Origin: Steroidobacteraceae bacterium
GTDB taxonomy: Bacteria; Pseudomonadota; Gammaproteobacteria; Steroidobacterales; Steroidobacteraceae
Direction: 5' to 3'
Length of the DNA: 64,000 nt
NCBI GenBank assembly: GCA_035481975.1
Contig: DATHRC010000008.1
Coordinates: forward strand, 15,877 to 79,876
Position numbers and translations under genes: made by a program. Shown here piece by piece: positions 20,719 through 37,390 of this stretch (positions within the stretch are counted from its first letter, which is position 1; each line of letters opens with the position of its first letter). The notes below the pieces were generated by a model. The model was not told the origin of the DNA. It saw only the letters and a program-made list of their open reading frames with translations, and made no database searches.

Positions 20719-20740
20719 GCGGGCGCGCGTCACGCGCAAA

Positions 20741-20763: not shown

Positions 20764-20802
20764 CGCGGGATGTCGCGGCAGGGCCAGCGCGTTCGGCGGT
20801 GT

Positions 20803-21812: not shown

Positions 21813-21924
21813 CCACCCCTAACGAAGAAGCCACGCCCGCGCGTGAGGGATGATGCGCCGGCCGCAGCGTGCGCCTCGTCATCGCGACACGGACAGAACA
21901 ACGCAAGAACAGGGAAAGGGAGCC

Positions 21925-24900: not shown

Positions 24901-25326
24901 ACCGGCGCACCGGATCTCACCGCGCGCTCGGTCGGGCCGAATACGGTGGTCGCTTCCATCACCGAGTCCGAAGTGCCGTGGGGCGAGTGGGAGATGTTTC
25001 CGACGCTGATCGGTCCTTACGGGCCCGCGGGCGCACCGACGACCCCGGTGAGCACCAGCGTGGCGCTGGAGCTGAAGCCCTTCGACGCGACGGTCACGTC
25101 CGACCACGGCGACCTCTGGTCCGATGTGACCTTCGGCACCAGCACGTTCAATCCGCTGGTGCTGGGCCCGGGTGCGACCGGCACGATCAACGTGACCATC
25201 ACGCCGAGCGCCTCGCAGGTCGGCACGACCGTGCACGGGATCATCTACGTCGATACGTTCAACGCGGTCGTTCAGACCGGCGATGAGGTGGTGGGCATTC
25301 CGTACAGCTACACCGTCACGCGCTGA
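21925..25326 (+). CDS. clan SB (S8/S53) serine peptidase with sedolisin-like active-site motifs, an I9-like propeptide and a ~620-aa beta-rich C-terminal extension
   Basis: The start was moved to ATG 21925 (verified; GGGAAAGGGAG lies upstream). A signal peptide and a propeptide-like region are present. Motifs are VAWIADGLD, SGEAFGD (Glu codon at 22615-22617), VSTGDAG and GGTSESSPLTAGEAALI (Ser codon at 23308-23310). No HGTH motif is present. Confidence 0.85.
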   Translation: MNPATVLKAVVTAAVTVILSASTLSAATAAAPALKRNVIVILRDQMPMLPAVRGQREARAGALASAQAPIVSHLQASGAARIRGFALINAVAANVTADEEQALAAHPLVQAVVPERVIKLPRAANARAAFAGGNSGAVAGGGADARLCNTLEPEALQLTNTAFLDPSVPQAQRVRDGNGEFVTGKGVKVAWIADGLDPTIQGFIHTDGTPVFIDYQNFSGDPAGTPTGSGEAFGDASSIAANDTPNGKVLSFDISQYVDKALGTLPPGACNIRIRGMAPGASVVGLKAFSALGVTTNTAIAQAIEYAVVHDDVDVINESFGGNPFPDNDNDPIALADQAAVRGGVVVVVSTGDAGFNGTMGTPSTDPLVISSGATTQLRLYRQVGYGAAFFASNGWLSNNLSAFSSGGFSMSGPRVPDTVAPGDVGWALCAPLAETALFTECDAPLGGEAKPPAIQIFGGTSESSPLTAGEAALIIQAYRSTHHGHDPSPALVKEIIMSTATDLGAPPSEQGAGLINALAAVNAALSVRDQNGGAGPSGNSLLNNPTNVSITDLPRAPESVTVAITNTGSVKQLLEPELQVLGPPIAGATTTVTLAKSDPIFPSPAGLPRNYVLQHFTVPEGAEHLDAAIAWQVNPFTGPAVTVDLGLIDPSGKDAGYTIPQGASSAYGHFDVNHPAAGTWTAVIWTSAVSDSYYGPVVFSWTAERYVKFGSVSPASFELAPGATQWITARFSMPAQPGDEAVAIRFAGNASHAEVPIVLRALVPTGPNGGFFNGTLTGGNGRGSTGPTQTFAFDVPPGVKNMSLSVQDSDSFWLLEGLLVAPDGMQLSVEPNFDANENPTVTMQLNRAQPAPGRWRFILLQNLFASGNETSLPFTAQINFNAAQVNATGLPQNPHTKLSVAAGAVSVPITITNTGGLAQAYFADARLEGALTTLTFGTFPVCGGPPPLTQLPYACFGTFLPTQVKSAQFIAQAGAPITMDAAGDTGYLVGVTGAPDLTARSVGPNTVVASITESEVPWGEWEMFPTLIGPYGPAGAPTTPVSTSVALELKPFDATVTSDHGDLWSDVTFGTSTFNPLVLGPGATGTINVTITPSASQVGTTVHGIIYVDTFNAVVQTGDEVVGIPYSYTVTR

Positions 25327-25399: not shown

Positions 25400-27979
25400 T
25401 CAGCTGCCGATCCTGACCTGGTAAGTGACGGTGAGCGCCCCGCCCGAGCGAAGCGAGCCGCCGAAGCTCCATTGCACCGCGCCGGTGCCGCCCGCCGCAG
25501 GCTGGGTGGTCACGCTGCAGCTGCTCACGCCCGCGGGCAGTGTGCCCGGGCAGGCCGCCGACACGAAGGTAGTAAAGGCGGGCGTCGCATCGCTGATCAC
25601 GAGTGTCGACACGGTCTGCGCACCGGTGTTGGTGGCGGTGAGGGTGTACTGCAGCGTGTCGCCAGGATTGGCATTCACGGCAGTTGCCGCGCCACCGCCC
25701 TGAGTGAGGTTGCTGACCAGCTTGACGAGCGACAGCGTGCCGGTCGCGCCGACCGTGGTCAGGTCGCTGGCGCTCACCGTGGCCGCGAGCGCCGGGCTGG
25801 CATTGCTGTACTGGCATGCGGCGCTGACGGTGACGGCGCTCTGCGCCCCGGCCGCGGCGCCGGCGGGCACCTGCACCTTGACGATCAGGCAGACCTTCTG
25901 ACCGGCCGTGACCGCGATGGGCGCGCTGATCTGCGGATCGCTGCCGCTGAGCGTGCCGCTGCAGCTCAAATCCTGGTAGAGCACCGCGGTCCACGGCGGC
26001 GCGGCCGGCGCACTGCTGGCGGCGATCGCGAAGCTCACCTGCCCGGCGCTGCCGGCAATGAAGGTGTGGGCGTACTGCACGGTCGCGCCCGGCTGCGCCT
26101 GCTGCGCGCCGTTGGGGGCGAGACTGTTGGGCGGCACCAGCCCGAAGCTCACCCCGGTATAAGCCTGGCCGGCCACCGGTGTGAAACTCACGCTCGGACG
26201 TGAGTAACTGCCGCCGCTGGTTCCGGCACTGCCGCCGGTGGCGAGATAGCCGCTCGGGGCGAGCGGGGTGACGGTGAGCGTGCCGCTGGCGGTGGCCGGT
26301 ATCCACAGCGTATAGGTGCCCGCCGCCGGCGTGCGCATCGCGGTGGTGACCGCCCCGCTGCCCTGCACCAGCACGCTGCCGATGCCGGCTTCCGCGCCGT
26401 CCTGCACGCCGTTGTTGGCGATACCCGCGCCGGCGCCGGTGTCGGCAAACACCACGCCGCTCACGCTGCTGCCGTCGTACAGGCCGAAATTCTGCGGCGG
26501 CGGCGGTTCGCTCGGCACCACGTTGAGCTGGATGACGCCGCTCGGGTTCTGCGTGCCGAGCCAGCCGGCGGGGCGCGCAGCGATGATGTCGGTGAGCGTG
26601 CTATCCGCATTGAGGATGAGGCAATAGCTGCCGGCGGCGATCGGCGCGAAGCTGTACGCACCGCTTGCGGCGTTCACGGCGGCGGCCGCCGTGGCCGGGC
26701 TCTGACACGCCCCGCCGGTGAAAGGCGCGAGCTTGACGAACAGGCCGCTCACGCCGGTGCCGCTCTCGCCGCCGTCCAGGGTGCCATTGTGGTTGGCGTC
26801 GTTGTAGACCGTGCCGGCGATGGTCTGCGGCGGCGGCGTCAGGGTCAATGTGCAGGTGATGGCGTCCCCGGTCTGGGGCGTCAGCGTGAAGCTGGTGCCG
26901 GCGCCATGCGGCAGCACCGTGTTGGTGCCGCCGAAGGCCGACGCTCCCGGGCCGCTGTTGGTGCAGCTCATGCTGCCGGTGTACGCCGACAGCGCCGAGA
27001 AGCTGCCGGCCGCCATGGCGGCGCTCAGCGTGATGCTGTTGGTGCCGATGACGGAAGTTGCCCCGGTGCCGACGTTGCCGGCCCCGCTGGTGGTGGCCGC
27101 CTTGATGGTGGCCGCGGGGCTGGTGTAGGCGATGCTGGCGGTGAACTGGTCGGAGGCGCTGATGCGTCCGTTGATCACCAGGTTGAAGGTGAGCGGCGGC
27201 AGCGAGAGGGCGAACAACGCCGCCTCGTTACCCGAAAAGGCCGTCGAGACCTGTGTGGGGTTCGCTGTTCCGAGCACCACCGAGCCGTTGTAGTTGCCAT
27301 CTGTCGTCGTCGGCGCGCTTTCGAGCACGATGCCAGTACCGGTGCCCGACAAAGTCACGGCGCCGCCATTAAAGGAGGCGTAGTAGGTGACGTTGTCTAT
27401 CAGGCTCCAGCTCGAGGTGCTCGTATAGGTGATGGTCTCCGGCGCATTGGTATTCTCGCCGTCCGCGCTGTAGAGGACGAAGGTGCGCGCGTTGCCGGAG
27501 GCGTCCTTGACGGTGAGACCCGACAGCGTGGTGGTGCCGGTACCCGTCTGGTTGAGCCAATAGAATATCGGCTTGCCGGTGATGCCGTTGTAGGCGCCGT
27601 GTCCGAAGGCACCGCCGCCGCTCCACGAAGGCTCGGCGACCACGGCCATGCCGCTCGTGATCTGGGCGCTCAGGTTGAAGGTGCCGGCGCCGTTCGGCAG
27701 CGTGAAGGTGAGCGGCTGCGCTGCCACCGAGCCGGTGTTGAAGCTGGTGAAATCGAGCCACCACAGGCTCTGTGCGAACGTGCCGGTGCCGCTGCTCGCG
27801 TAGGAGCCGCCGGCGGCCAGCACCGGCGCGGCGCTCACCGCGAGCACCGCGGCGAGGAGCGCGGCGCGCAGCGGGCCTGCGCCGCGCAGCGGGCGTGCGC
27901 CACGCGGGAGGCGTGCGGCCCGGGACGGCGCTGCGCGCTGCCGCGGAACCCTGAGCGTGAAGGCGCCGCAATTCTTCAT
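25400..27979 (-). CDS. 859-aa exported adhesin-like protein: non-repeat head, two SdrD-B/Cna-B-like domains, two DUF11-type domains
   Basis: The start was moved to ATG 27979..27977 (verified); it overlaps the upstream stop as ATGA. A long Arg-rich n-region precedes LLAAVLAVSAAPVLA. SdrD-B-like motifs are GTVYNDANHNGTLDGGESG and GVVFADTGAGAGIANNGVQDGAEAG. The C-terminal DUF11-like motif is PGDTLQYTLTATNTGAQTVSTLVISDATP...LTVTYQVRIGS. Confidence 0.8.
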   Translation of the reverse strand: MKNCGAFTLRVPRQRAAPSRAARLPRGARPLRGAGPLRAALLAAVLAVSAAPVLAAGGSYASSGTGTFAQSLWWLDFTSFNTGSVAAQPLTFTLPNGAGTFNLSAQITSGMAVVAEPSWSGGGAFGHGAYNGITGKPIFYWLNQTGTGTTTLSGLTVKDASGNARTFVLYSADGENTNAPETITYTSTSSWSLIDNVTYYASFNGGAVTLSGTGTGIVLESAPTTTDGNYNGSVVLGTANPTQVSTAFSGNEAALFALSLPPLTFNLVINGRISASDQFTASIAYTSPAATIKAATTSGAGNVGTGATSVIGTNSITLSAAMAAGSFSALSAYTGSMSCTNSGPGASAFGGTNTVLPHGAGTSFTLTPQTGDAITCTLTLTPPPQTIAGTVYNDANHNGTLDGGESGTGVSGLFVKLAPFTGGACQSPATAAAAVNAASGAYSFAPIAAGSYCLILNADSTLTDIIAARPAGWLGTQNPSGVIQLNVVPSEPPPPQNFGLYDGSSVSGVVFADTGAGAGIANNGVQDGAEAGIGSVLVQGSGAVTTAMRTPAAGTYTLWIPATASGTLTVTPLAPSGYLATGGSAGTSGGSYSRPSVSFTPVAGQAYTGVSFGLVPPNSLAPNGAQQAQPGATVQYAHTFIAGSAGQVSFAIAASSAPAAPPWTAVLYQDLSCSGTLSGSDPQISAPIAVTAGQKVCLIVKVQVPAGAAAGAQSAVTVSAACQYSNASPALAATVSASDLTTVGATGTLSLVKLVSNLTQGGGAATAVNANPGDTLQYTLTATNTGAQTVSTLVISDATPAFTTFVSAACPGTLPAGVSSCSVTTQPAAGGTGAVQWSFGGSLRSGGALTVTYQVRIGS
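27866..27919 (-). repeat. three tandem 18-nt (6-codon) repeats inside the pre-signal n-region of the adhesin-like gene
   Basis: GCGCAGCGGGCCTGCGCC (27866-27883) and GCGCAGCGGGCGTGCGCC (27884-27901) differ at one position. A degenerate third copy lies at 27902-27919. On the coding strand they encode AARLPR-GARPLR-GAGPLR. Confidence 0.7.
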
Positions 27980-30900
27980 GGGGCACGCGCAGCGAAGTTG
28001 CCGTGCCCGGCGCTGTCGCGCGCCGCGACCGGCGCGCCGCCGAGCAGGCTCTCGTCGAACTTTAAGTTCAGCCGCAGATAGACGCCGCGCTGCGTGTACG
28101 CTTCGCCGGAAAGATCGGGCGCCGAAAAGCCCTGCACGTTGTAGCCGAGCGAGACCCACAGGTTCTTCCACACCAGGTAACCGACCACCGGTCCCAGTGC
28201 GTACTGACGGTCGCCGTCACCCCACAGCGCATAGCCCTGCAGACCGGCGTCCCAGCGGGGATTGAGATCCCAGGTGGAGCGCGCCCCGCCGAGCTGGGTG
28301 AGCGTGGTGCCGGCGAACCCGTCGGTCCAGTCGATGGCGCGCTTGGCCGCATAGCGCGCGGCGATCTCCCAGCCGCGCGTCGGCTGGATGTTGAGGTTGC
28401 CGGCGACGATCCATGCCATCTCGTCGAGGTTAAGGCCCGGGCCGAGCGTGGTGTCGTAGTCGCGCAGGTACTCGATCTGGCCGAGCGCGTTCCAGACATC
28501 GCTGTTCACCGGGCGGTAGGCGAACCCCGACTGCACGCGCGCCAGCTCGCGACCCTGCGGGCCCTGCGCCCCTTGCAGTCCGTCCGCCTCCTGGTTGAGG
28601 TCGGTCTGCTTCGTATACAGCGCGCGCTCGAGCAGCGTCCAGGACGCATCGAGCTTGTGGGCAACACCAGCGGTCAACAGCCAGGTGTGCGAGCTGTCGG
28701 AGGTCTCCCACTGCGCCTGGGAGGAGGCCTTCCAGTCGTGTGCGGCGGTGTAGTTCGCGCCGAGCGTGATCGCGCTCGCTGCGTCACTGATCACCCCGCC
28801 GAGGGGCACGACGCGCTGCGCACTGGCCGACAGCCCGATACCGTCCTCGAGCTTCCACTGCTGGCGCAGGCCGATCGCCGCTTCGCTGCTGCGCCCGTCG
28901 ATGCCGTCGCCGACGCGGTACTCATCGAACAGCTGCGTGTTGTCGGGGAGCGTGGTGCTCAGGCCCGCCACCGTGGTGTACTGCTGCACCTGCGGATCGA
29001 GCGAGTAGGGGCCGTTGAGGCTGTTGATGAAGTCGTGCTGTGCGTACAGGTGCGTCGTGGCATTCAGCGCGTAGGTGCCGCCGACGCCGTATTCCTCGCC
29101 TTCGCCGGCGACGGCCTTCTCGGCGAGCGCGAAGGCTTCGGCACCCTTGACGTCCGGAACCGGCACGGTGACCTTGACGAGCGCGGCGGTGTAACCGGCC
29201 TGCGCGTTGTCCGTGCCCGGCGGCAGCACCGGGGGCACCGGTGTCGCCGGTGCGATCATGCCAGGCAGGGCAGGGGCGGACAGTGCCGCGGCCGCATTGG
29301 CGTCGCTGTGCAGCACGCCGACCTCCACCTTCGCCTTGCCGCGCAGGGTGTGCTCGAGCTTCACGTCCGCCCCGGTCTGCTCGGCTCCGGTGACACTGTC
29401 GGAGGTCCTCAGGCCTTCCGCGACGATCCGGTCGGCCGCGTCCAGGCGGTAAGCTCCTTTGAGGCCGTACTGGGCTTCGCCGGCCTGTTGCAGGCTGTTC
29501 GGGTTGTAGAAATCCGCATCGGTGTGCGTGCCCCACAGGTGCATCTGCAGCTTCGTGTCCTCGTGCTGCACGTCGAGGCGCTCGCCGAGGCCGTCGCCCT
29601 GCACGTCGCTTGCGCTGCGGGCCACTTCGGCGATCGCCGTGGTATGGGCGTCGAGCTTTTCGGTGAGGTTGACGCCTTCCAGCGTAAGCTCGTTGCCGGG
29701 GTCGGCATCGTGGATCGCGGTGGCGCCGAGGGTGAGCCCCGGGGTCACCTGCAGGCGCGCATCCGCGCCTTCCACCCAGTGCTTCGGGCCGCCGTCATCG
29801 ATCGAGTAGCTGACGTGGACGTAGACCGGGTTGAGGTTGGCATCGACGCTCGGCACCGGATTGGTGAGCAGCAGCAGCCCGGTGTACGGCTCGATGGCGT
29901 AGTCGGTGAACGGCGTCAGCGGGGTGTCGCTCAGGATGACTGACGGCTGATTGCGGTCGCGCGTGATGATGTCGACCTGCTGGCTGTTAGTGACGCCGCG
30001 CAGGTCGAGCTGGAACGGACCGGAGGTGCCGTTGGCGCGGAACTCGACGATGCTCTGGGTGCTGCTGGTGTCGCTGGCAAAGCCATCGACGGTGACGCTG
30101 CCGAGCTGCCAGTGCGCCTTGGCGCCGTTCAGGGCGCGCGCGTACTGGGTCAGCTGGCGGGCCGGGTTGTCGCTTTGCGTGGTGTAGTCGCCATACAGCG
30201 CGTAATTGGTGCCGTTCTGCACCATGACGTACAGCTTGCCGGTGGACTGCGCGTCGAAGCCGCGCGCCGCGGAGTCGCCGTACACCGGATAGAACTGGTC
30301 GGGCTGGATGTCGCGGAACAGCGTGGTGTCGGAGGGCTTGTCCGAGTCGTACGCGAGTGTCAGCAGCGTCGAGCCCAGGACCTTGCCCTTGAGGAACAGC
30401 GCGGTGCGCGCCGCGGCATCGTCCTTGCCGCTGTCGAAGCTGCTGGAGACATTGGCGATCTCATTCTCGAACACGTCGGTGCTCTGGGCCGGCTGCAGCG
30501 CCGACGGATTGAGATTGCGCAGGTTGAGGGAAGCGGACACGAGTCCCACGCCGAGCAGCGGCCGCAGGTTGGGCGTGAAATCGAGCGTGGTGGCGGCCTT
30601 CACCGCGCCGCTGCCGACCGCGATGTCGGTCTTGCCCGGCTGCGCCGGCGGCAGCAGCAGCAGCTGCGCCGCGCCGCCGCTGACGAACACCTGGCTGCCG
30701 TCCGCCTTCGCCACGTGCTCATCGGCGGGGATCTGCCAGCGGCCGAGACTGGTGGACAGCGTGAGCAGGGTGCGCGCGGCCACCGGCAGGCCGTCGGCAT
30801 CGCGCAGCAGCACCTTGACGGGTACCGCCGTGGCTGCGTCCGCCACCGCCGCGGCAGGCGCCTCGAGAATGATGCGCGCCAGCGCGCCCGGAGCGAGCAC

Positions 30901-33765
30901 GCTGATGGCGGCGCTGCCGCGCACAACGCCGAAGTCATCGAGGGCGCGCAGGCGCAGCTCATTCCTGCCGGGGGTGAGATCGACGCCGACGTACTCCCAG
31001 GCCAGCACGCCGGTTCTCTCCAGGCTGCTCTTCTGGCCGACGCGACTGTCAGCGAGGGTGTTGCCGTTGACGGTGAGCTCCAGATGCGTGCCGAGCGGCC
31101 CCTTCACCTGCACGCGCGTCTGCGCGATCGGCAGCACGTCGCCATCCTTCAGGTTGACGAAGCCCACCTCGGGTGAGAGCTGCGGCAGCGCCTTCTCCAG
31201 CGCCTCGGTGCGCAGCTGCGTCTGCAGGGCGCGGAAATCGGCGTAATTGCTGTCGTCGGCTACCGGCGGCGCCGGCGCCTGCTGCTCGAGCAGCTGCGCC
31301 GCACTGGTGGTGAGCTGCTGCGGCAGTCCCTGCGCCTGCGGCGCGTACGGGCCGCCGGGATCGGCCACCGCGCCGAGCGGCGCGGCCGCTCCCGCAAAGG
31401 GTGAGATGCCGGGCATGCCGGAGGCGAGCGGTGCCTGCGGCAGCAGCGTGTTGCTGCCGGTCGTGGTATCGGGCGCACCCGGCAGACGGATGACCCCACT
31501 CGCCGGCAGCGTGCGCTGGTCGACGCTGGTGGTGGTCGCATTCGGCGACAACAGGCTCGAGGCCGCCTGCAGGATCTCCGAGGGCGTGATCAGGGCCTGG
31601 CGCCGCGCGTTGATCTGCGCATTGAGGTCGGCGCTGCAGCCGGCGAGCGCGAAGTCGGTCTTGTGCAGCTCGCCGTTGGTGAGGTCGACGAAGGCGCTGC
31701 CACCATCGAAGGCATTGCGGTTATTGAGCACCTCGAGGCGCGTGCCCGCCGGCAGCGTGGTGAGATCGACCTTGGCCACGTGCATGCGCGGGGTGAGACC
31801 GTACAGGCTGTACTTGCCGTCTTCGTCGCTCACCACGTAGGTGCCGTCCTCCAGGTAGATGCGCACGCCGGGGATTCCGGGCTCGCCCGGATCCTGGATG
31901 CCGTTGGCGTTGCAGTCGGCGAACACCTTGCCGATGAGGTAGGCGTCGCTGGAGAACACCCCGCCGGTGATCTGCACGGTAACGCTGGCGCGATTCGACG
32001 CGAGGTGGCCGCTCAGCGCCTGCGCCAGGTTGGTGCCGCTGCCGCCCTGCGCACCGGCGCCGATGCGCACCCGGTAGCTGAGGGTCAGCTGGGCCGCCTT
32101 CGGCAGGGCGCCGAGCGCAAATTCCAGCGCCGGTCCGGCCCCGCCGGCCGGATCGGCGAGATGCGCACCATTCAGGCGGGCGCTGCCGTGCACGTAGGAG
32201 AAGCCCGCCGGCAGCTCATCGCTCACCACGCTCGCCGGCAACGCCGCGCCGGTGTTGTTATTCACCTGCACGCTGTAGTCGACGAAGTCGCCGAGCTGCG
32301 CGCTGAGCTTGTCGGCAGTCTTCTGGATCAGCAGGCCACCGGCTGCGCCGCCCGGATCGAGCGGCACGTCGAAGTGCACCGCCTGGTTCTGTGCGCCGGC
32401 GATGACAAAATTCCTGCCGTAGGAGCCTTGCGGATTGAGCACGCGGCCCGCGGGCTGCTGGGCCGGCGGCAGCGTCGAGGGAAACAGGTAACCGGCCGGC
32501 GGCGTGACAACCAGCCGGTAGGTACTCGGGGCCACGACCGGGAAAGCATAGCCGCCGGAGGCGGCGGTGACCACGGTCGCCGGCGCCGGGGTCGTGCCGT
32601 CGGACTGGAACACGCGCGCCGGCCCGCCGGCGTTACCGCCGTTGCCGGCGCCAGTGACGTCGATGAGCTCGACGCTCGTGGCCGCCACCGCATGGTTGCT
32701 GTGACTGTCGTACACCACGCCCGACGGATCGATGAGCAGCGTGGTGCTGGCCGACACCGCGCCGCCGGCGCAATGCGTCACGGTCGCGGTGACCACGTCG
32801 TTCGGCAGCACCTCGAGCACCCCGTCGCCCGCTACCACCGCATGCGTCGCCGCGTTCGCCGTGGGCACGTTCGGCTGGATGCGGAACACGCCGGTGTTGG
32901 CTGCGGTCTCCACGGCGTTGAAGGTGTCGACGTCCCCGGTCAGGCGGCTGGTGATCGTGACCGGCACGGTCAGTGCCTGCGCGGGATTGTTGTTGCAGAC
33001 GGCGGCATTCACCTGCACGAACAGCGGACTGCCGAGCGCGCCCGAGGCGCTGGCGGTGACGTAACTGCCGCTGGTGTAGTAGCCGATGGCCGGGGCGATC
33101 ACCGGCAGAGTGATGATCAGGGTGTTGCTCGGCGTGCTCTGGGCGGCACCACCGGCGCTGGCGGCCCAGCCGGCCACGGCCAGCGCGCTGATGGCGGTGC
33201 TGGCGTTGGCATTGACGCTGACGTTGAGCTGGCCGGCGAGCGTGGCGCCCGACGGCAGCGTCGCCACGGCGAAGGCCGCCGCGTCGATGACGGCGCCGCC
33301 GGGCGGCGCCGTGGCCCAGCTGTTGGCGGCGGTCCCCTGCAGGTGATAGAGCGTTTGCGCGCCCGCGGTCAGCGCGTGCGCACTGACGAAGCTGGTGTTG
33401 GCCGGTGTCTGGAAGGACAGCAGCACCAGGCTGGTGGGTGCGCCGTTCACGGTGAGCGCGATCGGCTGGGCCGCCGCGCCGCCCTGGTTCTCGGCGTTCG
33501 CGGTCAGCACCAGCACCGCCCCGGGGGTGCTGGAGCTGCTCGCTGAGCTCAGCGTCACGACCATCAGGGGCGTCGTGCCGGTGACGACCGTGGCGCTCAC
33601 CGTGTTGGAGCCAAAGCCGATCTGCTGCGCCGTGGCGTTGGTGTACAGGCCCGCGGCGGTGTTGCTGATGACGGTGCCCGCAGGCGGCGGCGCCGCCTGG
33701 CCCAGCGCCCACGGGATCAGCGGCAATCCGACGAGCAGCAGGTAGCGAAGCAGGCGGTGAAACAT
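27976..33765 (-). CDS. 1929-aa exported fusion protein: DUF11 / Cna-B-like / SdrD-B-like passenger, low-complexity linker, Ig-like domains and a ~870-aa beta-rich C-terminal outer-membrane-like module
   Basis: The start was moved to ATG 33765 (verified), giving MFHRLLRYLLLVGLPLIPWALGQA followed by APPPAGTVISN. Motifs are IDPSGVVYDS (Cna-B-like), LLIQKTADK...FVDYSVQVNNNTG (DUF11) and GKVFADCNANGIQDPGEPGIPGV (SdrD-B-like). The C-terminal part has alternating-hydrophobic beta patterns and ends GVYLRLNLKF plus a 26-aa tail. Confidence 0.8.
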   Translation of the reverse strand: MFHRLLRYLLLVGLPLIPWALGQAAPPPAGTVISNTAAGLYTNATAQQIGFGSNTVSATVVTGTTPLMVVTLSSASSSSTPGAVLVLTANAENQGGAAAQPIALTVNGAPTSLVLLSFQTPANTSFVSAHALTAGAQTLYHLQGTAANSWATAPPGGAVIDAAAFAVATLPSGATLAGQLNVSVNANASTAISALAVAGWAASAGGAAQSTPSNTLIITLPVIAPAIGYYTSGSYVTASASGALGSPLFVQVNAAVCNNNPAQALTVPVTITSRLTGDVDTFNAVETAANTGVFRIQPNVPTANAATHAVVAGDGVLEVLPNDVVTATVTHCAGGAVSASTTLLIDPSGVVYDSHSNHAVAATSVELIDVTGAGNGGNAGGPARVFQSDGTTPAPATVVTAASGGYAFPVVAPSTYRLVVTPPAGYLFPSTLPPAQQPAGRVLNPQGSYGRNFVIAGAQNQAVHFDVPLDPGGAAGGLLIQKTADKLSAQLGDFVDYSVQVNNNTGAALPASVVSDELPAGFSYVHGSARLNGAHLADPAGGAGPALEFALGALPKAAQLTLSYRVRIGAGAQGGSGTNLAQALSGHLASNRASVTVQITGGVFSSDAYLIGKVFADCNANGIQDPGEPGIPGVRIYLEDGTYVVSDEDGKYSLYGLTPRMHVAKVDLTTLPAGTRLEVLNNRNAFDGGSAFVDLTNGELHKTDFALAGCSADLNAQINARRQALITPSEILQAASSLLSPNATTTSVDQRTLPASGVIRLPGAPDTTTGSNTLLPQAPLASGMPGISPFAGAAAPLGAVADPGGPYAPQAQGLPQQLTTSAAQLLEQQAPAPPVADDSNYADFRALQTQLRTEALEKALPQLSPEVGFVNLKDGDVLPIAQTRVQVKGPLGTHLELTVNGNTLADSRVGQKSSLERTGVLAWEYVGVDLTPGRNELRLRALDDFGVVRGSAAISVLAPGALARIILEAPAAAVADAATAVPVKVLLRDADGLPVAARTLLTLSTSLGRWQIPADEHVAKADGSQVFVSGGAAQLLLLPPAQPGKTDIAVGSGAVKAATTLDFTPNLRPLLGVGLVSASLNLRNLNPSALQPAQSTDVFENEIANVSSSFDSGKDDAAARTALFLKGKVLGSTLLTLAYDSDKPSDTTLFRDIQPDQFYPVYGDSAARGFDAQSTGKLYVMVQNGTNYALYGDYTTQSDNPARQLTQYARALNGAKAHWQLGSVTVDGFASDTSSTQSIVEFRANGTSGPFQLDLRGVTNSQQVDIITRDRNQPSVILSDTPLTPFTDYAIEPYTGLLLLTNPVPSVDANLNPVYVHVSYSIDDGGPKHWVEGADARLQVTPGLTLGATAIHDADPGNELTLEGVNLTEKLDAHTTAIAEVARSASDVQGDGLGERLDVQHEDTKLQMHLWGTHTDADFYNPNSLQQAGEAQYGLKGAYRLDAADRIVAEGLRTSDSVTGAEQTGADVKLEHTLRGKAKVEVGVLHSDANAAAALSAPALPGMIAPATPVPPVLPPGTDNAQAGYTAALVKVTVPVPDVKGAEAFALAEKAVAGEGEEYGVGGTYALNATTHLYAQHDFINSLNGPYSLDPQVQQYTTVAGLSTTLPDNTQLFDEYRVGDGIDGRSSEAAIGLRQQWKLEDGIGLSASAQRVVPLGGVISDAASAITLGANYTAAHDWKASSQAQWETSDSSHTWLLTAGVAHKLDASWTLLERALYTKQTDLNQEADGLQGAQGPQGRELARVQSGFAYRPVNSDVWNALGQIEYLRDYDTTLGPGLNLDEMAWIVAGNLNIQPTRGWEIAARYAAKRAIDWTDGFAGTTLTQLGGARSTWDLNPRWDAGLQGYALWGDGDRQYALGPVVGYLVWKNLWVSLGYNVQGFSAPDLSGEAYTQRGVYLRLNLKFDESLLGGAPVAARDSAGHGNFAARAP

Positions 33766-33826
33766 TGGGGTGGGCGCGGCGCTGCGGTGACTTCTGGGCT
33801 TGGCGAGCGAGCGACCATCCCGCAGC

Positions 33827-33854
33827 GACGGGGGAGGCGGGCGCCTCCCCCGTC
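33827..33854 (-). promoter_or_regulatory. strong intra-operon stem-loop immediately after the 883-aa repeat-protein gene
   Basis: GACGGGGGAGGCG-gg-CGCCTCCCCCGTC has 13 complementary positions (realistically an 11-bp stem and a 6-nt loop). It begins 6 nt downstream of the stop at 33861-33863 and lies about 60 nt upstream of ATG 33765. There is no U-tract. Confidence 0.55.
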
Positions 33855-33860
33855 CCTGCC

Positions 33861-36512
33861 TCAGTGGTTCACCGCCACGCCGAAGGTGATGACCGCCGAC
33901 TGCCCGGGTGTCAGAGTGCCGACATTGGCGCTGAAGGAGCCGGTGCCGCCCACCGCCGGCGCGCCACCCGCGATACTGCCGACGGTCGTGGCTGGCGCGG
34001 TGCTCAAGGTGGTGAAGGTGGGGGTGGCGTCCGATACCACCACCGCGGTGGCGTTGCTCGAGCCGCTGTTGGTGACGGTGATCTGGTAGTCCACGCACTG
34101 CGCCGGTTTGGCGCTGATGGTGGTGGCGGCGTACACGGTGCCACCCGTCGGGCCGGTGCAGCCGGCATCGAGCGCCTGCAGCTTGAGCAGCGTCAGGTTA
34201 CCGGCGACCACCGTGGTGGTGTCGACGGCCACGGCGGGCGCCGGAGCGGCGGACACGTAGCTGCCGTTGGTGGTGGTGGCCGTGTTGGTGGTGGTATCGA
34301 CCGCCCCCACCGTGGCGGCGGCCGGTGCGATCACCTTGACGAAGATGGTGATCGACTGACCGGGGGCGAGGCCCGCGCCGAGACCGGTGACCGTGTTGAG
34401 ATTGCCGGTGATCTGCGGGTCGTTCGCATCCAGGCTGCTGCCGCCATCGGCGTCGTAGTAGAGCTGCGAGGTCCAGCCGGCCTGGTTGTTGGCGCTGGTG
34501 AAGGCAATGGTGCTCACCGTGCCGTTGCCCTCGACGACGTTGCCGTTGTTGGTGAGCGTCTGGGTGTAGACGAAGGAACCTCCCGCCGCGACCTGTCCAG
34601 AGTGGTTGGGCGTGAAGGTGAGCGAGCGCGTCGCGTTGACCGTCACCGCGTCAAAAATGGTGTCGGTCGCCGCGGAATTGGGCGACAGCGCGCGGAAGTA
34701 CAGGTTGTTGCTGCTGGCGGCGAAACCGGCCGGCACGGTCACGACCGCGCACACCACCACGTTGCTGAGCGAGGCCACGGTGCCGGTGTTGGTGATCGTG
34801 GCGCCGGTGGTGGAGCAGTTGCCCGCGCCACCGTCGGCCTTGAAGGTCACTGTCCAGCCGGCCGGCAACGTCTGGCTGGAGAAGTTCGCCACGGTGCTGG
34901 CCGCCAGGTTGTAGTTGTCGGGCGAGGGGCCGCGGTTGTTGGCCACCAGGATGAAGGTGGTGCTGCTGCCCGGGGCGGTGGTGTTGGTGATCACCGGGGA
35001 GCCTTCCGGCCCCGGACCCTGGCCCGGCGCCGGCGAGCCGGCGTTGTAGGGGCTGTTGTTGGTCACGTCGACCGCATTGGAGGAGATCGCGCTCAGCGTG
35101 TCGGTCGCGGTCGCGGTCACCGCCGCGTTGAACACGGAAGCGGCGCTCTTCTGCACGGTGAACGGCGCACCGGTGTTGGTGGCGTTCGCCGGCAGGTTGG
35201 CCTTGACGATGACGTTGTAGGTGGCGCCCGCCGCCAGCGGCCCGGTATCGGCAATGCCGTCGCCGTTGGTGTCGGTGAGCGGCGTGACGCCGTCGCTCTT
35301 GAACAGCTGGAAGGTGGTGCCGGCGGGGAAAGTGTTGGTGCCGACGGTGATATTGAAGGTGTCGGTACCGTTACCGGTGTTGGTCACCGTATTGGTGAAG
35401 CTCACCGCCGAGCCCGGCGCCGCCGGTCCCGCCACCGTCTGGCCGGTGAAGGTCAGCGCCACCGTCTGCCGCACCGTGAACGGCACGGTGTTGGTGCTGC
35501 CGCTGACGTTGGTGCCGCCGCCGTTGCTGTAGATGTAGGTCGCGGTATTGTTCAGGACGCCGGCGGCGGTGGCCGCAGCGACGTTCACCTGGAAAGTCAC
35601 CGTGCCGGACTGCCCGGCGGTCACCTGGGCGAGCGTCGCCGTGAAGGTGTTGCTGGCGGCGGTGTAGCTGGAGGTGATGGTATTGGGCGCAGTACCGCTG
35701 GTGCCCCCGGTATCCGACAGCGCCGTGGCTCCCGTGACGCTCCAGCGCCCGGAGCCGGCCACATAGGTGAGGCCGGTGGGGATCGCATCGGTGAGCGCTA
35801 CGCTGGTGGCGGTGCTGTTGCCGGTGTTGGTGTAGCTCAGCGTATAGGTATAGGGACCGGAGGGGGCATTGCCGCTGGCCGCGCTCACCGCCTTGGTGAT
35901 GACCACCGCGGCGTTGTTGGTGACCGTGGTGACGTCGGTGTTGCTGCCGCTCTTGGTGTTGTCGAACACGCTGGTGGCGGTGACGGTGACCGTATTGGTC
36001 TGTCCGGCGGTCGCCGTGCCCGGCAGGGTGGCGGCGACCACGAAGCGGAAGGTCGCCCCGGAGTTGACCGCGCCGCTCGAGGTGAGCGGTGAGCCGGTCG
36101 GCTGACCACTGCCGTTGTCGGCATAGATCTGCACGCTGCTCATGGTGAAAGCGCCGGCATTGGCCGTCGTCAGATTGAACGTGTCGACGCCGTTGCCGCT
36201 ATTGGTGAGGGTGTGCGGGTAATAGACCACGCTGCCCGCGGTGGCATTCTGCGCACCGTTCTGGGTGAGCGTGAGGCTCGCCACCTGCTGCACGGTGGTC
36301 TGCACCACGTTGGAGGTGACGGTGTGCGACACCCCGGAGGTATCGGTGTAGGTGGCCGACGCCTGGTTGCTGATGGACGTGCCCGCCGGCGGCGGGACCG
36401 CCTGCACGCTGCCGACGGCGGCGATGGCGAGTACCGCGGCGACCAGGACGCTCGCAGCACGACGCAGCCGGCTGGTTGCAGCTGCGGACGGATATTGTTT
36501 GAATGCAGTCAA
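33861..36512 (-). CDS. 883-aa exported protein made of multiple DUF11-type (conserved-repeat, Ig-like) domains
   Basis: It has a TTG start at 36512, with GGAG 8 nt upstream on the coding strand. The signal peptide is ...VLVAAVLAIAAVGSVQA, followed by VPPPAGTSISN. The motif recurs as xYxxTLTNxGNxxDTF / TNTGNSTATSVALTDAIPTGLTYV / TVTNSGSSNATAVVVSDATP. Composition is Thr/Gly/Ala/Asn-rich. Confidence 0.8.
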   Translation of the reverse strand: MTAFKQYPSAAATSRLRRAASVLVAAVLAIAAVGSVQAVPPPAGTSISNQASATYTDTSGVSHTVTSNVVQTTVQQVASLTLTQNGAQNATAGSVVYYPHTLTNSGNGVDTFNLTTANAGAFTMSSVQIYADNGSGQPTGSPLTSSGAVNSGATFRFVVAATLPGTATAGQTNTVTVTATSVFDNTKSGSNTDVTTVTNNAAVVITKAVSAASGNAPSGPYTYTLSYTNTGNSTATSVALTDAIPTGLTYVAGSGRWSVTGATALSDTGGTSGTAPNTITSSYTAASNTFTATLAQVTAGQSGTVTFQVNVAAATAAGVLNNTATYIYSNGGGTNVSGSTNTVPFTVRQTVALTFTGQTVAGPAAPGSAVSFTNTVTNTGNGTDTFNITVGTNTFPAGTTFQLFKSDGVTPLTDTNGDGIADTGPLAAGATYNVIVKANLPANATNTGAPFTVQKSAASVFNAAVTATATDTLSAISSNAVDVTNNSPYNAGSPAPGQGPGPEGSPVITNTTAPGSSTTFILVANNRGPSPDNYNLAASTVANFSSQTLPAGWTVTFKADGGAGNCSTTGATITNTGTVASLSNVVVCAVVTVPAGFAASSNNLYFRALSPNSAATDTIFDAVTVNATRSLTFTPNHSGQVAAGGSFVYTQTLTNNGNVVEGNGTVSTIAFTSANNQAGWTSQLYYDADGGSSLDANDPQITGNLNTVTGLGAGLAPGQSITIFVKVIAPAAATVGAVDTTTNTATTTNGSYVSAAPAPAVAVDTTTVVAGNLTLLKLQALDAGCTGPTGGTVYAATTISAKPAQCVDYQITVTNSGSSNATAVVVSDATPTFTTLSTAPATTVGSIAGGAPAVGGTGSFSANVGTLTPGQSAVITFGVAVNH

Positions 36513-36565
36513 GATGTAACTCCGTGAAACTTAAGCTGTTGATGTCGTACGTGAGGCGCGCGGCA

Positions 36566-37090
36566 TCAGCCCGCAGGCGTGCCGGCGGCCGCGGCGGCGA
36601 CCGCCGGGGCGGCGGTGTTGACGCGTACGCGCGCGCTCACCTCGCGGCTTGCGCCCGCGGCGAGGATGCCGAGGTTCCAGCGCAGCGCGCGGTAGTCCTC
36701 CAGCGGCACCGCCGCGAGGCGCTCCCTGCCGTCGGCCTGGCGCACGCGCCGCAGCAGCGGCAGCGGCGCGAAGGTCGTGCCATCGGTGCTCGCCAGAGCG
36801 TCCGGGGGCAGCTGCGAGCCGTCGAGCAGCGTCGTGCCCGCCGGGATGGGCAGACTGGCGACCAGCCCCTGCACCGCCGCGGCGGAGTGATTCGTGTAGG
36901 TGACGCGGTACTCGAGTACGTCGCCTGGTTTGCTGGCCTGCACCGGATGCAATACGGACTTGCCGTCGACGGTCTCGACCTTCTCCACCTGCAACTGCGA
37001 GCTGACGAGTGCGGACTGCGCCCAGGCGACCCCTGCCAGAGCCAGACACGCGAACCAGACCGGCCAATGCCGCGGCGATATAAAACGCAT
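36566..37090 (-). CDS. 174-aa exported single-DUF11-domain protein, first gene of the operon
   Basis: ATG 37090 was verified, with GAAGG 6 nt upstream. The signal peptide is WFACLALAGVAWA. The DUF11-like core reads PGDVLEYRVTYTNHSAAAVQGLVASLPIPAGTTLL...WNLGILAAGASREVSARVRV. The protein ends in an Ala-rich tail. Confidence 0.75.
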   Translation of the reverse strand: MRFISPRHWPVWFACLALAGVAWAQSALVSSQLQVEKVETVDGKSVLHPVQASKPGDVLEYRVTYTNHSAAAVQGLVASLPIPAGTTLLDGSQLPPDALASTDGTTFAPLPLLRRVRQADGRERLAAVPLEDYRALRWNLGILAAGASREVSARVRVNTAAPAVAAAAAGTPAG

Positions 37091-37156
37091 ACTTACCTTC
37101 TTTGTTGAACCAACTTGAGGGAACCACTAAGGGTTTTCCCTATAGGAGTATTGGAG

Positions 37157-37196
37157 CCGATTGACAGAACGTGGCCGGCAACCGATTTCACAGAAC
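37157..37196. repeat. imperfect direct repeat upstream of the DUF11 operon (candidate operator)
   Basis: CCGATT-GACAGAAC (37157-37170) and CCGATTTCACAGAAC (37182-37196) repeat with a 25-nt period, 67-106 nt upstream of ATG 37090. They sit in a locally AT-richer stretch. Confidence 0.4.
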
Positions 37197-37247
37197 AGCG
37201 GGCACCGCCGCGGACCGCGTTCACAATTCGCCCGCCCGCGCGGGCAA

Positions 37248-37267
37248 AGTGCGACCTGCGTCGCACT
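37248..37267 (-). terminator. candidate hairpin downstream of the GNAT gene
   Basis: AGTGCGAC-ctgc-GTCGCACT is an 8-bp stem with a 4-nt loop, about 125 nt after the stop at 37391. It is preceded by the palindrome GCCCGCGCGGGC. There is no U-tract. Confidence 0.3.
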
Positions 37268-37390
37268 CGGCGCGGCTCGGGCTACCTCAATCGAGAGATG
37301 ACATCCAACACGTGCCGGCTCGGCAAGGCCGATGTCAGTTAGATTGCAGCGTCCGCAGCGGGGAGATGGCGCGGGCGTCTTGACGCTTCT

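Follow-up and report, generated by a model that had tools for sequence, protein, structure and literature searches.

A conserved four-gene operon with split CLIPPER domains and a predicted giant beta-barrel module as a candidate surface-fibre system of Gram-negative bacteria

Gene content and conservation of the operon

The window analysed here is a stretch of 64,000 nucleotides from a Steroidobacteraceae MAG (contig DATHRC010000008.1). An earlier sequence-only reading had described four co-directional open reading frames on its minus strand, and all four (g1 to g4) are present at the positions it gave. The locus comprises:

37091-37390, minus strand: upstream intergenic region, presumed promoter/leader, a 300-nt non-coding gap between a GNAT gene (37391-37825) and g1
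36566-37090, minus strand: g1, 174 aa, exported, a single truncated CLIPPER-like Ig domain
33861-36512, minus strand: g2, 883 aa, exported, multi-Ig, with an N-terminal donor and a C-terminal acceptor
27976-33765, minus strand: g3, 1929 aa, with signal peptide, donor strand, Ig-like passenger, Pro/Ala/Gln-rich linker, Ig-like domains and a predicted giant barrel
25400-27979, minus strand: g4, 859 aa, exported, with a lineage-specific head, SpaA_3, SdrD_B and an acceptor, without donor strand

All four proteins start with a Sec-type signal peptide, in agreement with the export claimed for them. The ATG of g1 is preceded by the ribosome-binding site AAGAAGG, and g2 starts with TTG 7 nt after GGAG; a search for a sigma-70 consensus upstream of g1 found none. 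The ATGA overlap behind the translational coupling proposed for g3 and g4 is present. The NCBI products of 174, 1929 and 859 aa from the Steroidobacteraceae MAG are identical (HSY04767/65/64), and the operon genes are annotated there as hypothetical or SdrD-B-like only. No published description of this system was found in the literature.

Neither the operon nor its conserved flanks contain an enzyme, ATPase, chaperone, sortase or recognized secretion component that Pfam, NCBIfam and a neighbourhood survey could detect. The sequence-only reading had likewise recognised no enzyme or ATPase, and no PapD-like chaperone, sortase, T1SS/T2SS/T5SS component or TpsB. It had named conserved synteny as a check, and the order g1-g2-g3-g4 is indeed kept in at least seven phyla, with g1 as the first gene in nearly all loci. 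The operon was found in hundreds of environmental Gram-negative species. The neighbourhood survey revealed no further conserved partner gene near it, as expected for the self-contained cluster that had been suggested.

Truncated and complementary CLIPPER domains

The CLIPPER domain 9IFR has a crystallographically proven isopeptide triad (PMC12617251). An intact domain of this type in g3 covers positions 2-113 of the 114 in the Pfam DUF11 profile; in the alignment to 9IFR, its Lys482 pairs with Lys715, its Asn579 with Asn806 and its Asp516 with the conserved Asp of that domain. The Lys-Asp-Asn triad is kept in 69/69 homologous internal domains. The C-terminal DUF11/CLIPPER domains of g1, g2 and g4 end just before the strand with the isopeptide Asn. 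Their DUF11 matches reach no further than profile positions 84-91 of 114, where the protein ends, and across phyla these C-termini are conserved up to the final residue. The missing strands correspond to a near-invariant …AGTxIxNxAxAxY…SN… motif, which is found right after the signal peptide at the mature N-termini of g2 and g3. The relevant features are:

36285-36398, minus strand: g2 donor segment, mature residues 39-76, VPPPAGTSISN49QASATYTD…TSNVVQTTVQQV
33864-34217, minus strand: g2 acceptor domain, residues 766-883, a CLIPPER domain without its last two strands, Lys777 and Asp828 kept
33580-33693, minus strand: g3 donor segment, mature residues 25-62, APPPAGTVISN35TAAGLYTN…GSNTVSATV
31978-32334, minus strand: g3 intact CLIPPER/DUF11 domain, residues 478-596, with the complete Lys482-Asp516-Asn579 triad
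25403-25747, minus strand: g4 acceptor domain, residues 745-859, a truncated CLIPPER domain, Lys753 and Asp797 kept

The g2 donor begins straight after the VQA|V signal-peptidase site, and the core I-x-N-x-A-x-A-x-Y is present in all complete g2 homologs across phyla. In a profile alignment this segment matches the last two strands of the intact CLIPPER domain, Asn on Asn, and the donor Asn was present in every complete g2 homolog inspected. At the other end of g2, the DUF11 match runs up to the last residue of the protein, reached at profile position 85 of 114, within the conserved end …PGQSAVxTFGVxIN(P/Q)*. The acceptor Lys is kept in 37/37 non-gap sequences and the Asp in 42/42, and every complete g2 homolog has both donor and acceptor. 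We therefore regard g2, on sequence grounds, as the candidate shaft and as the sole subunit that would be able to polymerize. The sequence-only reading had assigned many DUF11 repeats to g2. The family assignment stands, but Pfam detects DUF11 in two significant stretches only, plus DUF7619; the earlier wording overstates what can be detected, because the other Ig-like domains of g2 are too divergent to score.

The g3 donor belongs to the same motif class as that of g2. A donor HMM built from g2 matched 52 g2 and 33 g3 open reading frames, in each case directly behind the signal peptide (i-E<1e-3 for the g3 set); of the 1,951 frames searched, none that was g4-like, g1 or unrelated gave a match. 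About a quarter to a third of the g3 homologs carry only a degenerate donor motif, and two of them (L007 and L022) have Ser at the position of the donor Asn, so some junctions, at least, would be non-covalent. The N-terminal motif could alternatively be read as a targeting signal.

The two parts were also compared in joined form. A profile of the g2 acceptor followed by the g2 donor matches the intact internal CLIPPER domain from one end to the other (hhalign, 98.2% probability over 128 columns), Asn on Asn. Appending the donor to the g2 acceptor extends the Pfam DUF11 match from position 85 to position 100, with a small gain of 3.7-4.9 bits, while a shuffled donor gave −0.3 bits. Single-sequence AF2 of the fused acceptor and donor reached a pLDDT of only 43, a model that carries no information on the joint.

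In g4, which carries an acceptor only, the following additional features were identified:

27191-27814, minus strand: g4 head, about residues 56-263, no known family
26837-27190, minus strand: g4 SpaA_3 prealbumin-like (CnaB-type) domain, residues 264-381, PF20674 E=6.6e-24

The claimed arrangement of a non-repeat head followed by SdrD-B-like and DUF11 domains holds for g4. The head has no match in Pfam, NCBIfam or the PDB and is conserved in close relatives only, and Pfam finds SpaA_3 (264-381), SdrD_B and DUF11 (767-857). This DUF11 match spans profile positions 10-84 of 114, and 2 residues separate its end from the stop. Among the g4-like homologs, Lys is kept in 45/47 and Asp in 46/47. These genes encode 855-2685 aa with variable heads and always have the acceptor domain at the end, and g4 is thus a candidate tip adhesin as judged from sequence.

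For g1, the signal peptide of the sequence-only reading was recovered; its single DUF11 domain gives a weak Pfam match only (21.7 bits, which is under the gathering cutoff, over profile positions 13-91 of 114). With hhalign, g1 aligns to the intact CLIPPER domain (97% probability, columns 17-103 of 137) and stops at the truncation point common to g2 and g4. The position equivalent to the Lys is K29/R17 among its homologs, and that of the Asp is T/S/N/V/I in 50/53 and other residues in 3. By its residues g1 is thus an acceptor groove only, without the catalytic Asp, and it might act as a non-covalent cap or as a periplasmic donor-strand chaperone.

About 45 loci, belonging to Pseudomonadota, Verrucomicrobiota, Acidobacteriota, Nitrospirota, Abditibacteriota and Desulfobacterota, follow the same grammar, with both donor and acceptor on g2, a donor and the barrel on g3, and only an acceptor on the g4-like protein. 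Donors and acceptors are both absent from three loci without g2 and g4 (L001, L004 and L064). At the level of sequence, these comparisons establish the truncation and complementation grammar and the conservation of the triad. That complementary halves of one split CLIPPER domain reside on different subunits suggests a concrete assembly mechanism, which the sequence-only reading did not contain.

The predicted barrel module of g3

Behind its intact CLIPPER domain, g3 continues with:

31744-31929, minus strand: SdrD_B domain, residues 613-674, PF17210 E=7e-14, with a PDB match to SdrD
31186-31533, minus strand: Pro/Ala/Gln-rich low-complexity linker, about residues 745-860, assigned by composition
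30601-31173, minus strand: putative Ig-like domains before the barrel, about residues 865-1055
27979-30600, minus strand: predicted giant beta-barrel module, residues 1056-1929, from AF2 and family searches

The Pfam matches to DUF11 and SdrD_B bear out the passenger proposed for g3. The region of about residues 865-1055 gave no Pfam match in the window protein; homologs have weak Invasin_D3 (12/32) and Big_1 (9/32) matches upstream of the barrel, and this region belongs to the stand-alone barrel proteins. Such proteins occur in some genomes, where the barrel module is its own gene, translationally coupled to a giant adhesin, which links the function of the barrel to cargo with Ig repeats. The position of the g3 linker is where Hydrogenophaga-type loci have the protein divided over two genes. 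In L001 and L004 the end of a 2806-aa adhesin is homologous to g3 335-731, and the adhesin is followed by an independent barrel protein of 1046-1142 aa, which carries a signal peptide itself.

The C-terminal part of g3 had been described as a beta-rich module of roughly 870 aa. AF2 with 32 homologs gave a model (mean pLDDT 74, pTM 0.63) with ∼40 beta-strands over ∼800 aa, and the predicted fold of the module is a very large beta-barrel with some 35-40 strands; strand count and closure were read from the DSSP string with moderate confidence. Residues ∼1056-1929 have no Pfam, NCBIfam or PDB relative, and the family profile found nothing in the PDB at E≤10. Family members show faint porin-type Pfam matches only; Usher, PapD, Autotransporter, POTRA/ShlB and IAT_beta were not found in any of 32 members, even at E≤0.1. 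Foldseek returned only generic large barrels (TM 0.17-0.26), with the 30-strand SlpA barrel at the top (TM 0.26) and PapC and FimD at ranks 24 and 44. Usher, autotransporter, TpsB, secretin and LptD were ruled out as the identity of the barrel by these profile and fold searches, and no characterized secretion or pilus family could be assigned to the module or to the other genes. Such an assignment had been named as a refutation by the sequence-only reading, whose interpretation is supported in this respect as it is by the synteny. The barrel family has 4,642 representatives at 50% identity and occurs in at least 581 species genomes. We consider g3 a candidate outer-membrane anchor and translocator based on these predictions.

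Proposed assembly and comparison with known systems

We propose that the operon encodes a self-contained, outer-membrane-anchored surface fibre joined by split-CLIPPER donor strands, a reading that we hold, by a modest balance, to be probable. All four proteins would leave the cytoplasm by Sec. The base would be g3, its C-terminal barrel inserted by BAM and its passenger (about 720 aa) passing through its own barrel in an autotransporter-like topology, with the passenger outside, the Pro/Ala-rich linker in the lumen and two Ig-like domains in the periplasm. The shaft would consist of g2, in one or many copies per fibre, and g4 would form the distal tip with its variable head. Joining would be head-to-tail by donor-strand complementation of the split CLIPPER (DUF11, CnaA-like) domain, in which the first ∼38 mature residues of g2 or g3 donate the last two strands to the C-terminal domain of g2 or g4. 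With the first-strand Lys and the catalytic Asp retained on the acceptor and the invariant Asn supplied by the donor, insertion would probably lead to a spontaneous intermolecular Lys-Asn isopeptide bond. This would lock each junction covalently and make every step irreversible, with no need for ATP, sortase or a PapD-type chaperone. Reversible binding of donor strands by g1 could make it a periplasmic anti-polymerization chaperone or a non-covalent cap. Physical complementation, the covalent bond, export by the barrel and surface exposure are what we infer from the sequences.

The operon might also be a dedicated export system without inter-subunit assembly, which we regard as unlikely. The barrel would then be a two-partner-like transporter, the N-terminal motif of g2 and g3 a targeting signal recognized by the barrel or the periplasmic Ig domains, and g1, g2 and g4 independent monomeric fibrillar adhesins or matrix proteins. 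TpsA proteins as a rule have conserved N-terminal targeting domains. Moreover, the Hydrogenophaga-type barrel is separate and coupled to one giant adhesin, and since these loci lack donor and acceptor features the barrel can serve cargo without strand complementation. However, g1 and the g4-like proteins are equally conserved and would have no signal, and the motif represents, residue for residue and including the isopeptide Asn, the two strands missing from the C-terminal domains, whose conservation to the last residue is unexplained by targeting. A rather improbable alternative is an inward-facing envelope scaffold with the barrel in the outer membrane, where a periplasmic Ig chain (g3 passenger, g2, g4 and g1) would either form a lattice or tether the outer membrane to peptidoglycan, much as Deinococcus SlpA tethers this membrane by its N-terminal stalk. 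Periplasmic assembly requires no translocation step, SlpA is the best Foldseek match (at a TM of only 0.26), and in 11 loci a gene for an OmpA-like peptidoglycan-binding lipoprotein follows the barrel gene. Yet g1-g4 of the window have no peptidoglycan-binding domain (SLH, OmpA or LysM), ∼25 Ig domains (roughly 100 nm) are too long for the periplasm, and the hypervariable heads of the g4-like proteins are typical for exposed adhesins. Isopeptide-stabilized CLIPPER, SdrD_B and SpaA domains also typify extracellular stalks (PMC12617251).

We give very little credence to a highly diverged known pathway, in which g1 would be the chaperone and g3 the usher of a chaperone-usher pilus, or the operon would encode a type V system (autotransporter, inverse autotransporter or TPS). 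The gene order and logic resemble fim/pap operons, an N-terminal passenger with a C-terminal barrel is the type Va architecture, and PapC and FimD are in the Foldseek list, but TM values of 0.17-0.26 are those of any large barrel. The profile searches described above found none of these families, the ∼800 aa of near-continuous strands compare with 12 strands in type Va/Ve, 16 in TpsB and 24 in ushers, and g1 is a single truncated Ig domain as opposed to the two-lobed PapD fold.

The proposed split-CLIPPER fibre shares its domain family and the Lys-Asp-Asn triad with monomeric CLIPPER/DUF11 fibrillar adhesins (such as Acinetobacter silvestris B9T28_05395, 9IFR), which also form tandem Ig-like isopeptide stalks on Gram-negative surfaces (PMC12617251). 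Their bonds are intramolecular in one giant chain with an OmpA-like or other anchor, whereas the terminal domain here is split between polypeptides; the CLIPPER survey mentions neither split domains nor the barrel family (PMC12617251). The archaeal threads of Sulfolobus acidocaldarius (Saci_0406) combine N-terminal, head-to-tail donor-strand complementation with an apparent spontaneous intermolecular isopeptide bond and a conserved extreme mature N-terminus. They differ by an unrelated fold and sequence, one subunit type, no outer membrane or barrel, and a bond from the alpha-amino group of Asp24 to Asn57 between subunits n and n+2 (PMC9715654).

As in type Va/Vb systems, passenger and barrel form one chain in g3 (two coupled genes in Hydrogenophaga-type loci), and the linker is proposed to run through the barrel lumen. 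Here, however, about 35-40 strands are predicted as opposed to 12 or 16, PF03797, POTRA and TPS domains are lacking, and the passenger would be extended by further subunits. Like the proposed fibre, the sortase-assembled pili of Gram-positive bacteria (SpaA, RrgB and Spy0128) have CnaA/CnaB-type isopeptide domains (g4 also has a SpaA_3 domain), subunits covalently joined via a Lys side chain and a tip/shaft/base layout. The present organism is diderm, with a predicted outer-membrane barrel as anchor in place of peptidoglycan and a proposed autocatalytic Lys-Asn bond in trans in place of the sortase-made Thr-Lys bond. Sortase and LPXTG sorting signals are absent from g1-g4, and one LPASG in the g3 linker is probably due to chance.

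The parallel with chaperone-usher pili drawn by the sequence-only reading holds for the logic (a tip adhesin last, an outer-membrane barrel and Ig-like subunits) but not for homology, as the barrel is larger than an usher and unrelated. The proposed fibre would share with these pili (Fim and Pap; PF00577 and PapD-like) Sec-exported incomplete Ig-like subunits completed by the N-terminal strand of the next subunit, a tip adhesin without donor strand, an outer-membrane barrel at the base, a self-contained operon and ATP-independent assembly. No component is homologous to g1-g4. The acceptor here is a C-terminal CLIPPER domain minus two strands and there a pilin minus strand G, the junction here is probably covalent and there is no two-domain chaperone. 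The much larger barrel is fused to the basal subunit, so that the base itself would be both fibre subunit and anchor.

SpyTag/SpyCatcher is an engineered split CnaB2 domain that forms its bond spontaneously between a Lys of the catcher and an Asp of the tag. There too, a peptide contributing a single reactive residue inserts as a beta-strand in a truncated isopeptide domain, which holds the partner residue and the catalytic acid. The proposed fibre would use a CnaA-like CLIPPER fold whose acceptor holds Lys and Asp and whose donor contributes Asn, and has apparently evolved; if the proposal is true, nature would have arrived at its own equivalent of SpyTag/SpyCatcher as a principle of assembly.

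The operon and its surroundings

The sequence-only reading had proposed four co-directional genes on the minus strand, here called g1 to g4 in transcription order, and open reading frames (ORFs) were found at exactly these coordinates. They are listed with their Pfam and NCBIfam matches:

36566-37090, minus strand: g1, weak DUF11
33861-36512, minus strand: g2, DUF11 (two significant stretches) and DUF7619
27976-33765, minus strand: g3, DUF11 (residues 478–596) and SdrD_B (613–674)
25400-27979, minus strand: g4, SpaA_3 (264–381), SdrD_B and DUF11 (767–857)

The domain calls made from the sequence were thus recovered, except that the "many DUF11 repeats" ascribed to g2 were overstated. All four translations open with a Sec-type signal peptide. 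The ribosome-binding site of g1 is AAGAAGG, g2 starts with TTG 7 nt past GGAG, and the proposed translational coupling of g3 and g4 is seen as an ATGA overlap. No match to the g4 head was obtained in PDB sequence and profile searches. The exact proteins have already been deposited from a Steroidobacteraceae MAG (HSY04764-HSY04767), named either "hypothetical" or "SdrD B-like domain-containing".

The operon is surrounded by housekeeping-type genes unrelated to it (an S8 subtilase in convergent orientation, a GNAT, an amino-acid permease and a GMC oxidoreductase), and a promoter and terminator scan gave no signal above background. The S8 subtilase (21850-25326, plus strand, 1,158 aa) is exported and ends 74 nt from g4. 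A part in subunit maturation, by analogy with type V pili, was rejected because the gene is not kept beside the operon in other genomes; it is therefore probably unrelated, although it may still act in processing in this organism. Three successive ORFs of 287, 342, and 446 aa (41250-44418, plus strand), without Pfam matches at E ≤ 0.001, sit upstream of the gene for a TonB-dependent receptor (45183-47759, minus strand). Long ORFs in 69% GC DNA can be spurious.

The predicted barrel module of g3 and its distribution

The C-terminal module of g3 (residues 1056–1929) had been described as an outer-membrane module of usher size. Its length is indeed usher-like, but it is neither an usher nor another characterised transporter. 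The module has no Pfam or NCBIfam match, and a database search with it retrieved 317 relatives (E ≤ 0.001), none with more than a generic name. The AF2 model (32 homologues; mean pLDDT 74, pTM 0.63; residues 120 to 850 of the model mostly scored 75–95) contains ≈40 consecutive β-strands of 8–17 residues each over ≈800 aa, and the module is therefore predicted to be a very large β-barrel.

According to Foldseek against the PDB, the likeness of the model to known structures is no more than that of large barrels in general (SlpA, TonB-dependent transporters, LptD, MtrB, PapC, and SprA; TM 0.13–0.26), with rmsd >16 Å for LptD, SprA, SlpA, MtrB, and the TonB-dependent transporters. The scores for PapC/FimD (TM 0.19–0.21) are no better than those for other large barrels. 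No sequence relationship of the family to LptD, SprA, SlpA, MtrB or TonB-dependent transporters was found, and a barrel-family profile searched against the PDB, PapC and FimD included, gave nothing at E ≤ 10. Pfam matches over 32 family members were limited to faint porin-type ones and weak Invasin_D3/Big_1 in the Ig-like region ahead of the barrel, with Usher, Autotransporter, POTRA/ShlB, and secretin absent. Neither profile nor fold searches assigned the module, or any other gene of the operon, to a characterised secretion or pilus family, in line with the sequence-only reading.

An exhaustive HMM search expanded the barrel family to 4,642 representatives at 50% identity, 2,532 of them at E ≤ 1e-30. 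Most are 1,900–2,400 aa long with a C-terminal barrel, while some are stand-alone proteins of ≈1,000–1,150 aa. A few representatives of ≈2,300–2,400 aa (P0129, P0185, P0227, P0228, P0229, P0235, P0236, and P0255) have the barrel in the middle of the protein (≈1050–1950) and ≈400 residues beyond it; these may represent fusions of g3 with g4, or gene predictions that run through the ATGA junction.

When one genome per species was scanned, the barrel was found in at least 581 species, including Beta- and Gammaproteobacteria, Verrucomicrobiota, Acidobacteriota, Nitrospirota, Gemmatimonadota, Abditibacteriota, and Geobacteraceae. Its closest relative is from a Steroidobacteraceae MAG (89% identity). 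Several carriers are in culture (Polaromonas glacialis R3-9, Polaromonas sp. CF318, Ramlibacter pallidus HM2, R. cellulosilyticus USB13, Curvibacter cyanobacteriorum HBC61, and Oleiharenicola lentus), so that the hypothesis developed below is directly testable. A MAG labelled "Synechococcus sp. UW140" (locus L013, CALRQR020000010.1) has operon proteins scoring near-identically against the window to those of Polaromonas sp. CF318 (L011), and its operon is most likely a binning contaminant, not a cyanobacterial copy.

Homologs of g1, g2, and g3 follow each other in the same order and on the same strand, with a g4-like gene next, in almost every locus with sufficient flank, so the four-gene order is conserved. 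Clustering of flanking ORFs over 84 loci showed recurrence for the g4-like gene (55 loci) and an OmpA-like lipoprotein (11 loci), but for no other gene. No chaperone, ATPase, sortase, protease or regulator was recurrent among these ORFs, in agreement with the proposal of a self-contained cluster.

A second operon type was found in Hydrogenophaga and relatives (L001 1584-14223, L004 1584-14498, and L064 900-12691). Here the barrel is a protein by itself (1,046–1,193 aa, with a separate signal peptide), and its gene is translationally coupled to that of an adhesin of ≈2,700–2,800 aa (DUF7933/CLIPPER/SdrD_B), which argues that the barrel is functionally tied to Ig-repeat cargo. In L001 and L004 the gene for the OmpA-like lipoprotein comes after the barrel gene. 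As the C-terminal end of the adhesin is homologous to g3 residues ≈335–731, g3 is a passenger-barrel fusion, joined at the Pro/Ala/Gln-rich linker. These loci have neither of the donor and acceptor features described below, and resemble either the ancestor of the system before the split or a reduced form of it.

A split CLIPPER domain

The DUF11 matches of g1, g2, and g4 end at profile positions 84–91 of 114, which is also the end of each protein. The DUF11 domain of g3 residues 478–596 is intact (full-length match to PF01345/TIGR01451) and continues past its "…YRVRIG" strand with "AGAQGGSGTN579LAQAL…ASNRASVTV". At the equivalent point g4 terminates with "…YQVRIGS*" and g2 with "…FGVAVNH*". 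We refer to these C-terminal domains, in which the last two strands of the DUF11-type Ig-like isopeptide (CLIPPER) domain are missing, as acceptors (g2 residues 766–883 and g4 residues 745–859). The putative donors of the missing strands (g2 residues 39–76 and g3 residues 25–62) lie right behind the signal-peptidase site, where mature g2 starts with VPPPAGTSISN49QASATYTD…TSNVVQTTVQQV and mature g3 with APPPAGTVISN35TAAGLYTN…GSNTVSATV.

Both ends of g2 are almost invariant in homologs from all phyla (N-terminal block AP[PA]AG[TS]xIGNQA[ST]ATYxD…SN and C-terminal end …PGQSAVxTFGVxIN[PQ]*), at an overall identity of 35–50%, and IGNQASATY is present also in the g2 sequences that a regular-expression search passed over. 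Most g3 homologs have a similar donor-type N-terminus, a minority have degenerate donors, and donors of the g2 and g3 types differ systematically. A donor HMM searched against 1,951 ORFs matched 52 g2 and 33 g3 ORFs, always just behind the signal peptide, and no g4-like, g1 or unrelated ORF. The resulting grammar is constant across phyla: donor and acceptor occur together in g2, a donor is combined with the barrel in g3, and the g4-like proteins (855–2,685 aa, with variable heads) carry only an acceptor. Locus L051 contains two additional small ORFs downstream of the g4-like gene (18930-20858; 441 and 191 aa). Both end in a truncated domain of the acceptor type, so that a choice of several tips or caps may be available in some loci.

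The two halves can be joined in silico. A profile of the g2 C-terminal domain followed by the g2 N-terminal 38 residues (42 loci) aligned end-to-end with the intact internal domain (hhalign probability 98.2%, 128 columns), with the donor Asn on the Asn of the intact domain and the "SN…V" strand on the following strand. In Pfam scans of acceptor-donor chimeras the match reached position 100 of 114 and gained 3.7 to 4.9 bits, compared with −0.3 for a shuffled donor, an effect in the expected direction but too small to decide the matter alone. AF2 of the fused g2 chimera without alignment gave a pLDDT of 43, too low to be informative.

Lys482 and Asn579 of g3 align with Lys715 and Asn806 of PDB 9IFR, a CLIPPER domain with a demonstrated isopeptide bond (PMC12617251), and Asp516 with its conserved Asp. 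The Lys-Asp-Asn triad is conserved in 69/69 intact internal domains of the g3 type, and a bond is predicted here from sequence. In the acceptors, Lys is found in all 37 non-gap g2 sequences and 45 of the 47 g4-like ones, and Asp in 42/42 and 46/47, respectively. g1 aligns to the same truncated domain, but its homologs have T, S, N, V or I at the Asp position (50/53) and K or R at the Lys position. In two g3 homologs (L007 6347-12610 and L022 6488-12604) the donor Asn is replaced by Ser (GTVITSTATATY), and their g3-g2 junction would therefore be non-covalent or use other chemistry.

Proposed assembly and comparison with known systems

The unassigned barrel, the conserved gene order and the split-domain grammar support and sharpen the earlier proposal of an undescribed surface-fibre system. 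We read the operon as a widespread, uncharacterised and self-contained fibre operon with an apparently unusual assembly principle. By its donor and acceptor content, g4 could be placed at the distal end only, g2 would join g4 and, in principle, further copies of g2, and g3 would end the chain only at the base, with its barrel as outer-membrane anchor. Each junction would be a donor-strand complementation completing the CLIPPER fold, with Asn contributed by the donor, and Lys plus the catalytic Asp by the acceptor. As these residues make up the autocatalytic set of the domain, an intermolecular isopeptide bond should form; this would make assembly irreversible and provide a ratchet for a periplasmic, ATP-free system. 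The very wide barrel might be a requirement for passing Ig domains that are already folded and cross-linked. The proposed topology is autotransporter-like, with the passenger outside, the linker in the lumen and the Ig domains periplasmic ahead of the barrel. g1, encoded first and apparently a catalytically dead acceptor, is best explained as a reversible donor-strand binder, acting either as a chaperone against premature polymerisation or as a cap.

We slightly favour this mechanism of fibre assembly as a whole, while the chance of a covalent lock seems to be just under even. A broader picture is offered more tentatively. The operons might represent a widespread, unrecognised class of diderm fibres, in which an N-terminal tag strand enters the truncated CLIPPER domain of a neighbour and is locked by a spontaneous Lys-Asn bond. 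New single-chain barrels of ≈35–40 strands, among the largest known, would export and anchor the fibre, the covalent step would be an energy-independent secretion ratchet, and g1 a catalytically dead decoy chaperoning the tags in the periplasm.

If true, the short list of pathways by which Gram-negative bacteria are known to assemble pili and adhesins would gain a new member, perhaps together with a new family of outer-membrane translocons, and covalent sortase-free pilus polymerisation would be shown for diderms. The route by which the very common DUF11/CLIPPER repeat proteins of environmental Proteobacteria, Verrucomicrobiota, Acidobacteriota, and others arrive at the surface and are retained there would also be accounted for. 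As protein-ligation tags of natural origin, the split domains would form an orthogonal family ready for use, a natural SpyTag/SpyCatcher, and the barrel would be a new test case for the folding of very large barrels by BAM.

The absence of a sortase, a T5SS/TpsB component and a PapD-like chaperone, already noted in the sequence-only reading, agrees with our searches. Sortase pili and CLIPPER fibrillar adhesins are made of the same building blocks, but there is no sortase in the operon or its flanks and no C-terminal LPXTG sorting signal, and the bond would form in trans. The sole LP.[TSA]G motif, LPASG (window 31505-31519, g3 residues 753–757), lies inside the Pro/Ala-rich linker; it was rejected as a sortase signal, being internal and unique with no sortase nearby, and is probably a chance occurrence. 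In the 2025 survey of CLIPPER domains the bonds are intramolecular and the adhesins monomeric, and neither split CLIPPER domains nor the barrel family is mentioned (PMC12617251). A full-text literature search that covered only a minority of subscription-journal papers turned up no account of this operon, of the barrel family or of split CLIPPER domains. The only known precedent for subunits joined both by donor-strand complementation and by an isopeptide bond between them is the archaeal threads (PMC9715654), whose fold is unrelated, whose chemistry differs and which occur without an outer membrane.

The FimA/Mfa type V pili of Bacteroidota are built from lipoprotein precursors by protease-triggered strand exchange, whereas the lipobox is absent here and the operon proteins have no Pfam matches to P_gingi_FimA/Mfa. 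The type V secretion barrels are 12-strand autotransporters (PF03797), 16-strand Omp85-type TpsB with POTRA, or IAT_beta. Neither g3 nor the 32 family members had Pfam matches to PF03797, TpsB/POTRA or IAT_beta, and the g3 barrel differs with its ≈800 aa and ≈40 predicted strands compared to 12 or 16. Passenger and barrel in one chain (g3) or in two coupled genes (L001 and L004) are type V-like, a resemblance of architecture only.

Chaperone-usher pili are closest in their logic. The usher (PF00577) is a 24-strand barrel with a plug and N- and C-terminal domains, and neither g3 nor the 32 family members matched it at E ≤ 0.1. A PapD-like two-domain chaperone (PF00345/PF02753) is not encoded in the operon or by its neighbours, and the 84 loci have no conserved extra gene. 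The system therefore differs in the lack of homology, in the missing chaperone and in the fusion of the barrel to the basal subunit. Yet its sequence grammar would fit a mechanism analogous to the N-terminal donor-strand complementation of these pili, carried out by another domain family.
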